Shown one piece after another: positions 52,695 to 53,454 of a stretch of DNA of 64,000 bases. This stretch comes from Escherichia coli. GTDB lineage: Bacteria > Pseudomonadota > Gammaproteobacteria > Enterobacterales > Enterobacteriaceae. The stretch lies in NCBI RefSeq assembly GCF_016026235.1, contig NZ_CP065613.1, one strand, 5' to 3'. The position numbers and the translations under genes are program-made. Within the stretch, counting starts at the first letter, position 1. Each line of letters begins with the position of its first letter. The notes beneath the pieces are model-generated. The model did no database searches. It was given only the letters and a program-made list of their open reading frames with translations, and was not told where the DNA came from.

Positions 52695-53297
52695 TTACTC
52701 AGATTCCCCGGCTTCGCTTACCACTTTGCTAAATATCATCTGCAACGCGGTGAGATCCCCCATTGCCCCACTCTGATTTGCCTGATTCCAGGCCTCTTTT
52801 TCGATACCCTGCCAGCTCAGTTGATATCCGGCATGAATCGCCAGTTGCTCGAAGAAGATCCGCTGTGCCAGACCACTTCCCACCCGGAAGGGATGCAGCA
52901 CGTTGATTTCACAATAGTAGTGCGCCAACCGCTCGACGAACTTCGCTTTCTCCAGGCCAACCAGATACCCTTCCTCCTCCAGATCCTGCATCAGGGCATT
53001 GCCCTCTTTTTCGATATAAGCAAAGTGGCAGAACGGCGTATCACCCTGATAAATATCAACTTCACGCAGTTGCCCTGCCCAGTCGAAAATATCCTGATAC
53101 AGCTGGCGATGGATAGTTCGCAAATGCGGTAAACCGCGCACCAGCGGACCAAGCTCAATGGTCGCAGCACGCAGCGCCGTCATTTCGTAAGCGGCCTGTT
53201 CCAGCCGTTGTTGCTGGCGGATGTTCAGCCGGTTACGCATGATATCAAGGCCAGGATAAAGATACGGATCGCGCCCTTCGCCGAATTTATCGCTCAT
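52695..53297 (-). CDS. fic: Fic-domain protein (AMPylase family), 200 aa
   Basis: [50 protein letters not shown]...[12 protein letters not shown] (Fic motif HPFx[DE]GNGR-like). Confidence 0.93.
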
Positions 53298-53454
53298 AGT
53301 GACTCCTCAGCTCTTCAAGGCGCGCTAAAGCCTCTGCGGCAGTAAGAGTGACTAAAGGCATCTCGACGCCTTCAAGACGGCGACTGGCCTGAAAATTACG
53401 ATTACGCTGAAGCTCCCAGAGACGGGACTTTTGCTTATCGGTGAGTTTCTTCAC
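53287..53454 (-). CDS. yhfG: small protein YhfG (Fic-associated, antitoxin-like), 55 aa, GTG start
   Basis: Translation [55 protein letters not shown] read from sequence; stop overlaps fic start codon; GGGAGG RBS upstream. Confidence 0.8.

Follow-up and report, generated by a model that had tools for sequence, protein, structure and literature searches.

Forty years have passed since the fic-1 mutant of Escherichia coli was described, and Fic, from which its family was first defined, is still in search of a substrate, a target, and a physiological role. The YhfG-Fic pair was predicted to be a toxin-antitoxin system by Makarova et al. in 2009, and in 2016 Stanger et al. named the two proteins EcFicT (Fic) and EcFicA (YhfG) and deposited PDB entries 5JFF and 5JFZ (PMC5033356). 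The proteins form a tight and stable 1:1 complex, and in its crystal structure Ser24 and Glu28 of YhfG contact Arg146 of Fic (R2, the last arginine of the signature loop), while Arg25 of YhfG contacts Thr40 of Fic (PMC5033356). The degenerate signature of EcFicT was already pointed out in that study, which detected neither auto- nor target AMPylation, not even when the antitoxin carried E28G (PMC5033356). According to two reviews that cite Harms 2015, EcFicT is an inhibitor of growth or an AMPylase of gyrase, but the authors of that work themselves later wrote that AMPylation by EcFicT was not found (PMC5033356). Knockouts of fic are viable, and the fic-1 (G55R) allele, which causes filamentation, behaves as a gain of function (PMC5033356).

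The closest characterized homolog is Fic-1, which forms a class I module with AntF in Pseudomonas bijieensis 2P24 (PDB 8WT0; PMC13327609); it matches E. coli Fic with E = 2e-49, and the numbering of H135, R146, and S24/E28 is shared. Fic-1 has the canonical loop HPFREGNGRAQR and AMPylates GyrB, whereas E. coli Fic has V139, S141, and L143 in the loop and neutral residues at positions 29 and 36. [quoted passage not shown] VbhT/VbhA of Bartonella schoenbuchensis (PDB 3SHG and 3ZC7) shares the fold, the embrace by the antitoxin, and the Glu-to-R2 salt bridge with YhfG-Fic. Unlike E. coli Fic, however, VbhT is plasmid borne, has a BID secretion domain as well as the canonical motif, and exerts its toxicity by AMPylating gyrase and topoisomerase IV, and VbhA has three helices where YhfG has two. 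In the class II and III proteins FICD, EfFic, and NmFic, the same inhibitory [S/T]xxxE[G/N] helix is present in cis, while in E. coli it is a separate protein that is fused to the N terminus only in the Buttiauxella ortholog; in FICD and EfFic the inhibitory Glu doubles as the deAMPylation residue. Doc/Phd of phage P1 likewise pairs a toxin of the Fic/Doc fold with a small upstream antitoxin, but Doc, whose motif differs, is an EF-Tu kinase, and Phd binds DNA and acts as an autoregulator, whereas no DNA-binding domain is recognized in YhfG, for which a domain scan gave the YhfG family match only.

Identity and layout of the yhfG-fic locus

We analyzed a window of 64,000 nucleotides from E. coli (contig NZ_CP065613.1), in which both strands of the region around fic were read and the open reading frame list together with the sequence served as the basis for the coordinates of yhfG and fic (Table 1). 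The pair in the window is, with near certainty, the chromosomal E. coli fic/yhfG pair that has been published under the names EcFicT/EcFicA and constitutes a class I Fic module. Fic matched the Fic/DOC family of Pfam (PF02661) over residues 58 to 152 with 52.5 bits (cutoff, 24; E = 9e-14) and the NCBIfam equivalog NF007672 with 430.3 bits (cutoff, 181), while its score of 138.4 bits against NF045983, the equivalog for the VbhT adenylyltransferase toxin, is below the cutoff of 800. The corresponding scores for YhfG were 84.3 bits against Pfam YhfG (cutoff, 22.6; E = 5e-24) and 126.9 bits against the equivalog NF007573 (cutoff, 77). Fic also matched PDB chains 5jfz_A and 5jff_A (E of about 1e-134), and the sole difference besides the engineered changes in the construct is R27, where the crystallized K-12 chain has H27. 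YhfG is identical to the wild-type chain B of 5JFF; chain B of 5JFZ carries E28G. Genes, overlap, promoter, and neighbors are those of K-12, and only the strain-level R27 differs.

Table 1. Features of the yhfG-fic locus in window coordinates
Feature	Position	Strand	Detail
TAAAAT, -10-like hexamer overlapping the fic stop	52692..52697	-	31 nt before the pabA ATG
fic (ecficT) coding sequence	52695..53297	-	ATG 53297-53295; 200 codons
Fic signature loop, codons H135-R146 (degenerate motif)	52860..52895	-	Translation; aligned to HPFREGNGRAQR of Fic-1
yhfG/fic overlap ATGAGCGATAA, fic start to yhfG stop	53287..53297	-	11 nt
yhfG (ecficA) coding sequence	53287..53454	-	GTG start 53454-53452; 55 codons; TAA stop 53289-53287
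fic Shine-Dalgarno GAGGAG, within yhfG codons 49-51	53303..53308	-	5 nt 5' of the ATG
YhfG inhibitory motif, codons S24-R-R-L-E28-G29	53368..53385	-	Translation, conservation, AntF alignment
yhfG Shine-Dalgarno GGGAGG	53461..53466	-	6 nt 5' of the GTG
Promoter core TGCCGCTTATACTTGTGGCA	53481..53500	-	Holds the sigma-S -10 TATACT, 53493..53488
Hairpin 3' of the ppiA stop, 10-bp GC-rich stem, weak U tract	53528..53549	-	RNA fold -21.6 kcal/mol; z = -2.95

Both yhfG and fic are genuine genes rather than chance open reading frames. The 1-kb stretch around them is 100% identical to E. coli FDAARGOS_943, the RefSeq coding sequence annotation of a 100%-identical E. coli genome has the same two genes with the same overlap, and the yhfG-fic stretch was found in 5,425 of 5,426 complete E. 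coli genomes, nearly always as a single chromosomal copy. Two antisense frames on the plus strand (52662 to 53132, 156 amino acids; 53208 to 53345, 45 amino acids) had no Pfam match at E ≤ 1 and were set aside as chance open reading frames, and an Rfam scan of positions 50000 to 56000 found no family at E ≤ 0.1. The module as such is already known, since the two genes have been published along with their overlap and promoter, the structure, and the unusual motif.

The initial annotation of this stretch, made from the sequence alone, had described yhfG as a 55-codon gene with a GTG start, a GGGAGG ribosome-binding site, and a TAA overlapping the fic ATG, and on the minus strand these coordinates proved exact; the string that it quoted, CACTATGAGCGATAA, corresponds to positions 53301 to 53287, with the fic ATG lying 8 nt before the yhfG TAA. 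From the overlap, it had called the genes translationally coupled. The overlap is there, but fic has its own Shine-Dalgarno sequence, so coupling is possible rather than obligatory, and the overlap alone is no proof of it. The statement that pabA lies upstream and ppiA downstream is right in window coordinates only; in the direction of transcription, ppiA is 5' of yhfG and pabA follows 31 nt 3' of fic.

The reading as a Fic-domain protein with a small overlapping partner, also made there, is confirmed by the Pfam, NCBIfam, and PDB matches, and the architecture is that of a class I Fic toxin-antitoxin module. A small separate upstream gene encodes the helix with [S/T]xxxE[G/N], here SRRLEG, and a 1:1 complex follows from the identity of the sequences to the 5JFF/5JFZ chains, with the contacts taken from PMC5033356. 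The initial annotation had named the absence of physical interaction between YhfG and Fic as part of what would refute it, and the 1:1 crystal complex settles that point in its favor (PMC5033356). Its suggestion that the helix with the inhibitory glutamate would be conserved also held: the whole motif was kept in 114 of 120 YhfG homologs, with S24 and E28 each in 119 of the 120. A profile built from 21 diverse YhfG sequences matched AntF (8WT0 chain B) with E = 0.004, and the motif segment was aligned to NYAASLRLEG of AntF.

The signature loop and its partner across Enterobacterales

The conservation of the Fic motif, likewise named as a check by the initial annotation, was found in part. Measured against HxFx(D/E)GNGRxxR, the loop of E. 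coli Fic keeps the catalytic H135, the F, both glycines, and R146 (R2), but V139 replaces D/E, S141 replaces N, and L143 replaces the first arginine (R1). The signature for AMPylation competence, in which D/E serves Mg and N and R1 serve the ATP phosphates, is therefore absent from the E. coli protein. A hydrophobic residue occupied both the D/E and the R1 position in 120 of 120 close Fic homologs. Among 149 representatives drawn from 1.84 billion proteins, the distant ones, with 35 to 45% identity, nearly all had the canonical HPFREGNGRxxR. With V139, L143, A36, T40, Y67, and F71, E. coli Fic belongs to the EcFicT-like subgroup 3 of Stanger et al. (2016). Of the 74 two-gene loci that we examined, 52 share this state, and another two have S36.

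The comparison was extended to the loci of 80 species of Enterobacterales, or 81 loci when a contig from Logan is included. The order ppiA-yhfG-fic-pabA held in 77 of the 80 species loci, or in 78 of 81 once the contig is counted, and in the other 3, pabA was not found downstream. Among 73 two-gene species loci, 69 had the 11-nt overlap, nearly always as ATGAGCGATAA, and 2 had a 4-nt overlap. Across the 80 species, the fic Shine-Dalgarno sequence was mostly (A/C)GGAGG, made of the rare Arg codons AGG and CGG of YhfG, and AGGGAGG 5' of yhfG was conserved in most of them. The yhfG-fic pair is thus a core, vertically inherited set with fixed synteny and not a mobile, patchy module; Stanger et al. 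had already argued for vertical inheritance of the fic locus between ppiA and pabA (PMC5033356).

The state of the loop differed between lineages. The canonical HPFR(D/E)GNGRAQR was present in Erwiniaceae, Acerihabitans, and Edaphovirga; D/E alone was lost in Cedecea, Dryocola, Shimwellia, Franconibacter, and relatives; and in the core Enterobacteriaceae, D/E and R1 were both lost, together with the changes E36 to A and F67 to Y. This distribution suggests that the motif decayed in steps across Enterobacterales, from canonical to loss of D/E and then to additional loss of R1. His135, both loop glycines, and Arg146 were invariant in all 80 species, while the groove residues A36, T40, Y67, and F71 were invariant only in the clade without R1.

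The genes themselves are under strong purifying selection. Because dS is saturated (>1) between genera, we relied on the comparison of E. coli with Escherichia albertii, in which dN/dS was 0.06 for both fic and yhfG (dS of about 0.5 and 0.2, respectively). Although somewhat above the values for pabA and ppiA (about 0.02), this ratio still reflects strong purifying selection and speaks for a functional protein that is being maintained, not for one in decay. The between-genera values for fic and yhfG, 0.04 to 0.12, are similar to those for pabA but rough as a result of the saturation. E. albertii is also the species in which yhfG has a nonsense codon (W13 to TGA) beside an intact fic, and a nonsense codon in yhfG has been noted in another E. 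albertii strain as well (S4 Fig in PMC5033356).

A second pattern links the loop to the partner protein. Arg25 of YhfG was present in 54 of the 56 loci with a hydrophobic residue at position 143 of Fic and in none of the 18 loci whose Fic retains Arg143. Both exceptions are of the Atlantibacter type, in which residue 25 has changed along with residues 36, 40, and 67 of Fic. A Fisher test of Arg25 against Arg143 formally gives 3e-15; as the species are not independent samples and perhaps two events are involved, we do not use this value as a probability.

Six Buttiauxella species and one metagenome contig carry a single 200-codon open reading frame at the syntenic site, in which residues 1 to 28 of YhfG are joined in frame to Fic, whose part begins at about residue 33. 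Pfam recognizes YhfG (40.6 bits) as well as Fic in the fusion, and the inhibitory Glu is replaced by Asp. An AlphaFold2 model had a mean pLDDT of 70, with the N-terminal helix (residues 7 to 26) at 76 to 86, and a Foldseek search of the model against the PDB returned EcFicT, Fic-1, and VbhT; the model leaves the docking of the helix unplaced. The fusion is probably what Stanger et al. called subgroup 2 (distinctive N terminus, no DPY, and non-Arg R0), a group not described as a fusion in their work (PMC5033356). Our literature search found no paper linking Buttiauxella and Fic, and the stepwise decay of the motif, the Arg25/Arg143 pattern, and the fusion were not found described in the literature searched.

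The fic promoter and the junctions with ppiA and pabA

Among sigma-S promoters, that of fic is a textbook case; its -10 hexamer is TATACT, and sequence downstream of -17 is enough for it to work. The pair yhfG-fic has been reported to be 133- and 111-fold RpoS dependent in strain EDL933. From the primer and fragment coordinates in PMC3089606, we compute a transcription start near 53481 to 53483, at about 53482, which would give yhfG a leader of about 28 nt. A scan for consensus promoters and terminators missed this promoter and gave weak sites only. In about 75 of the 80 species, the block TGC(C/T)GCTTATACTTGTGGCA (53500 to 53481) was nearly invariant while its flanks drifted. A perfect 7-bp inverted repeat, ATTTGCC/GGCAAAT, flanks the -10 hexamer in E. 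coli, and we considered it as an operator for autoregulation, but about 0.3 such repeats are expected by chance in 131 nt by our estimate, and the core around the -10 shrinks to 4 to 6 bp in other genera. A minimal sigma-S promoter, for which sequence downstream of -17 suffices, accounts better for the conserved block. The hairpin further upstream is probably the ppiA terminator.

At the other end, the spacer between fic and pabA was 29 to 33 nt long in 64 of the 78 loci where pabA was located. An interval of 31 nt is too short for a terminator, so yhfG-fic is not a self-contained unit, and the label of a small two-gene regulatory unit, given by the initial annotation, is not supported. The strict linkage to pabA without room for a terminator suggests read-through from the fic promoter into pabA. 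The TAAAAT at the fic stop may in addition be the -10 element of a putative promoter of pabA itself, as the block TA(G/A)AAT-AGCGCGG shows conservation across genera, including Erwiniaceae, in which the fic stop lies elsewhere. Tran and Nichols are said to have found, in 1991, pabA transcription both through and within fic; our literature search returned nothing usable on fic-pabA cotranscription.

What the YhfG-Fic complex may do

The reading that best covers these results, which we hold as a whole with moderate confidence, is that the locus is the published class I module with a re-specialized, YhfG-gated Fic made in stationary phase. The head-to-tail genes yhfG and fic lie behind the sigma-S (stationary-phase) promoter, and the first helix of YhfG sets Ser24 and Glu28 on Arg146 of Fic, which closes the nucleotide site in the same way as VbhA does in VbhT and AntF in Fic-1. 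Fic, with its catalytic His135, its glycines, and Arg146 but altered ligands for ATP and Mg, would more likely act on a substrate other than ATP, its activity would still be gated by YhfG, and transcription from the fic promoter would continue into pabA. On the narrower point that Fic is such an enzyme rather than a growth toxin we are tentative and put the chances slightly short of even, as this is an argument from conservation.

The toxin function assumed by the initial annotation fared worst. In a classical type II toxin-antitoxin system, free Fic would AMPylate GyrB/ParE and halt growth until YhfG neutralized it, and much of the outward appearance fits: a two-gene operon with the antitoxin first, an 11-nt overlap, and a single upstream promoter, with gene order, fold, and inhibitory contacts as in VbhT/VbhA, Fic-1/AntF, and YeFicT. 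Relatives at 33 to 49% sequence identity are proven AMPylases, reviews count EcFicT among the growth-inhibiting FicTs, and filamentation from the fic-1 (G55R) allele could be taken as a toxic effect. However, G55R acts as a gain of function and the knockouts are viable, the VbhT equivalog score is 138 bits against a cutoff of 800, and the mobile, patchy distribution expected of type II systems is not what the 5,425 of 5,426 E. coli genomes and the fixed gene order show. With hydrophobic or small residues (Val139, Ser141, and Leu143) at the ATP and Mg positions, Fic is most likely not a gyrase-AMPylating toxin, and together with the AMPylation that was not found even with YhfG E28G (PMC5033356), the core, syntenic, and vertically inherited locus, and the nonsense codon in yhfG tolerated by E. 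albertii, this makes a classical toxin very improbable. The same loss of three ligand-binding residues could mean instead that Fic is a catalytically dead pseudoenzyme whose complex is kept for a nonenzymatic role, such as sequestering a partner in stationary phase; that no Fic activity has been found in 40 years and that the complex is tight and stable would agree with this. We regard it as improbable, since His135, both glycines, and Arg146 are invariant in 80 species, the new groove residues are invariant in the clade lacking R1, YhfG retains the inhibitory Ser and Glu, and dN/dS is 0.06. Conservation centered on the active-site groove is also more in keeping with ligand binding or catalysis than with a merely passive scaffold.

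Another possibility is that the YhfG-Fic heterodimer is the working enzyme, with a composite site to which YhfG contributes Glu28 and also Arg25 in place of the lost Arg143 of Fic. The example of Fic-1–AntF, whose deAMPylase activity needs Glu28 of AntF, speaks for this, as do the near-invariance of S24 and E28 in precisely the clade whose Fic lost the ATP-binding residues and the distribution of Arg25 (54/56 against 0/18). An in-frame fusion in six Buttiauxella species would be ill suited to an inhibitor that must dissociate, and the overlap with the embedded Shine-Dalgarno sequence enforces coexpression. Yet the acidic cleft of Fic-1 (E29, E36, and E139) is Q29, A36, and V139 in E. coli, the Mg-binding D/E is gone, Buttiauxella itself carries Asp for Glu, its model is of moderate quality with the helix not placed, the covariation may amount to two independent evolutionary events, and fic is intact beside the yhfG nonsense codon of E. 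albertii. We consider such a composite site unlikely, and we are as reserved about the corresponding proposal that YhfG is an obligate subunit of an enzyme active in stationary phase, either in demodification of a deAMPylase-like kind or in transfer of a group other than AMP.

For the function of E. coli Fic, the stepwise losses in the loop, the exchange between Arg25 and Arg143, the Buttiauxella fusion, and the linkage to pabA are modest leads. The comparative patterns bear on the question of whether activity lies with the complex or with free Fic. If the heterodimer does turn out to be the enzyme, the "antitoxin" would be an obligate catalytic subunit, and the Buttiauxella fusion would have made the arrangement permanent.

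YhfG-Fic fusions and interrupted yhfG genes

In Buttiauxella (six species and one contig from Logan metagenomes), the syntenic site between ppiA and pabA is occupied by a single 200-codon open reading frame, in which residues 1 to 28 of YhfG are joined in frame to Fic from approximately residue 33. The motif in this fusion is HPFFVGSGRAQR, with Asp in place of the inhibitory Glu. The Buttiauxella fusion is a class I pair converted to a class II-like single chain, and no description of this reading frame as a fusion was found in the literature searched. YhfG::Fic fusion proteins of the E. 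coli type are also present in read-archive assemblies (P0001, 252 amino acids, and P0005, 233 amino acids, both from Logan E. coli assemblies), one arising from a 1-nt frameshift in the gene overlap and the other from an in-frame deletion; these may be genuine variants or else assembly errors.

In Escherichia albertii NBRC 107761, yhfG carries a nonsense codon (W13, TGG to TGA) next to an intact fic that is 94% identical to that of the window, with a dN/dS of 0.06. Since the remainder of this yhfG is nearly unaltered, the TGA codon is either recent or read through. The same W13 nonsense codon with an intact fic is found in strain TW07627 (PMC5033356, S4 Fig).

Coordinates of the features discussed
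Feature	Location	Strand
Inverted repeat	window 53478-53503	-
YhfG R25 codon	window 53380-53382	
fic Shine-Dalgarno	window 53303-53308	-
fic (contains codon 27)	window 52695-53297	-
Fic L143 codon	window 52869-52871	
Hexamer of the conserved block at fic stop codon	window 52692-52697	-
fic-pabA spacer, 31 nt	window 52664-52694	
E. albertii yhfG	L003:2344-2511	
Buttiauxella fusion	L074:2504-3106	
Buttiauxella fusion	L075:2504-3106	
Buttiauxella fusion	L076:2504-3106	
Buttiauxella fusion	L077:2426-3028	
Buttiauxella fusion	L078:2483-3085	
Buttiauxella fusion	L081:2453-3055	
Buttiauxella fusion, Logan contig	L001:1011-1613	

Residue variation in YhfG and Fic

Across the syntenic loci from 80 Enterobacterales species, the loss of Fic Arg143 goes with the presence of YhfG Arg25: a hydrophobic residue 143 occurs together with R25 in 54 loci, R143 is kept and R25 is absent in 18, and two Atlantibacter-type loci have L25 together with M36/I40/F67. 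This pattern, which is phylogenetically confounded and reflects few independent events, suggests an arginine provided in trans. Fic in the window has Arg27 versus His27 in the crystallized K-12 protein, a strain polymorphism within the N-terminal segment that is distinct from the fic-1 (G55R) allele; Gly55 is wild type in the window.

Sequence elements flanking and within the operon

Downstream, the fic stop codon is enclosed by a conserved block, TA(G/A)AAT plus AGCGCGG, located 29 to 33 nt before the pabA ATG; Erwiniaceae retain the block even though their fic stop codon has shifted away from it. TA(G/A)AAT is probably a pabA -10 element. The fic-pabA interval is too short for a terminator, and its otherwise fixed spacing of 29 to 33 nt is broken by inserts of 110 to 870 nt in a few genera, including Superficieibacter, Pseudescherichia, and Kosakonia cowanii (L025, L026, L027, L045, L049, L053, L054, and L073).

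Upstream in E. coli, the two arms of a perfect 7-bp inverted repeat, ATTTGCC ... GGCAAAT, lie on either side of the sigma-S -10 hexamer. An operator would be one reading of this symmetry, but it is disfavored because other genera keep only ATTGC/GCAA(T), and the repeat is probably promoter sequence.

Within yhfG, the rare AGG/CGG arginine codons for residues 50 and 51 make up the fic Shine-Dalgarno sequence, which in most of the 80 species is (A/C)GGAGG in the 20 nt upstream of the fic ATG. The translation of fic therefore constrains the coding sequence of yhfG.
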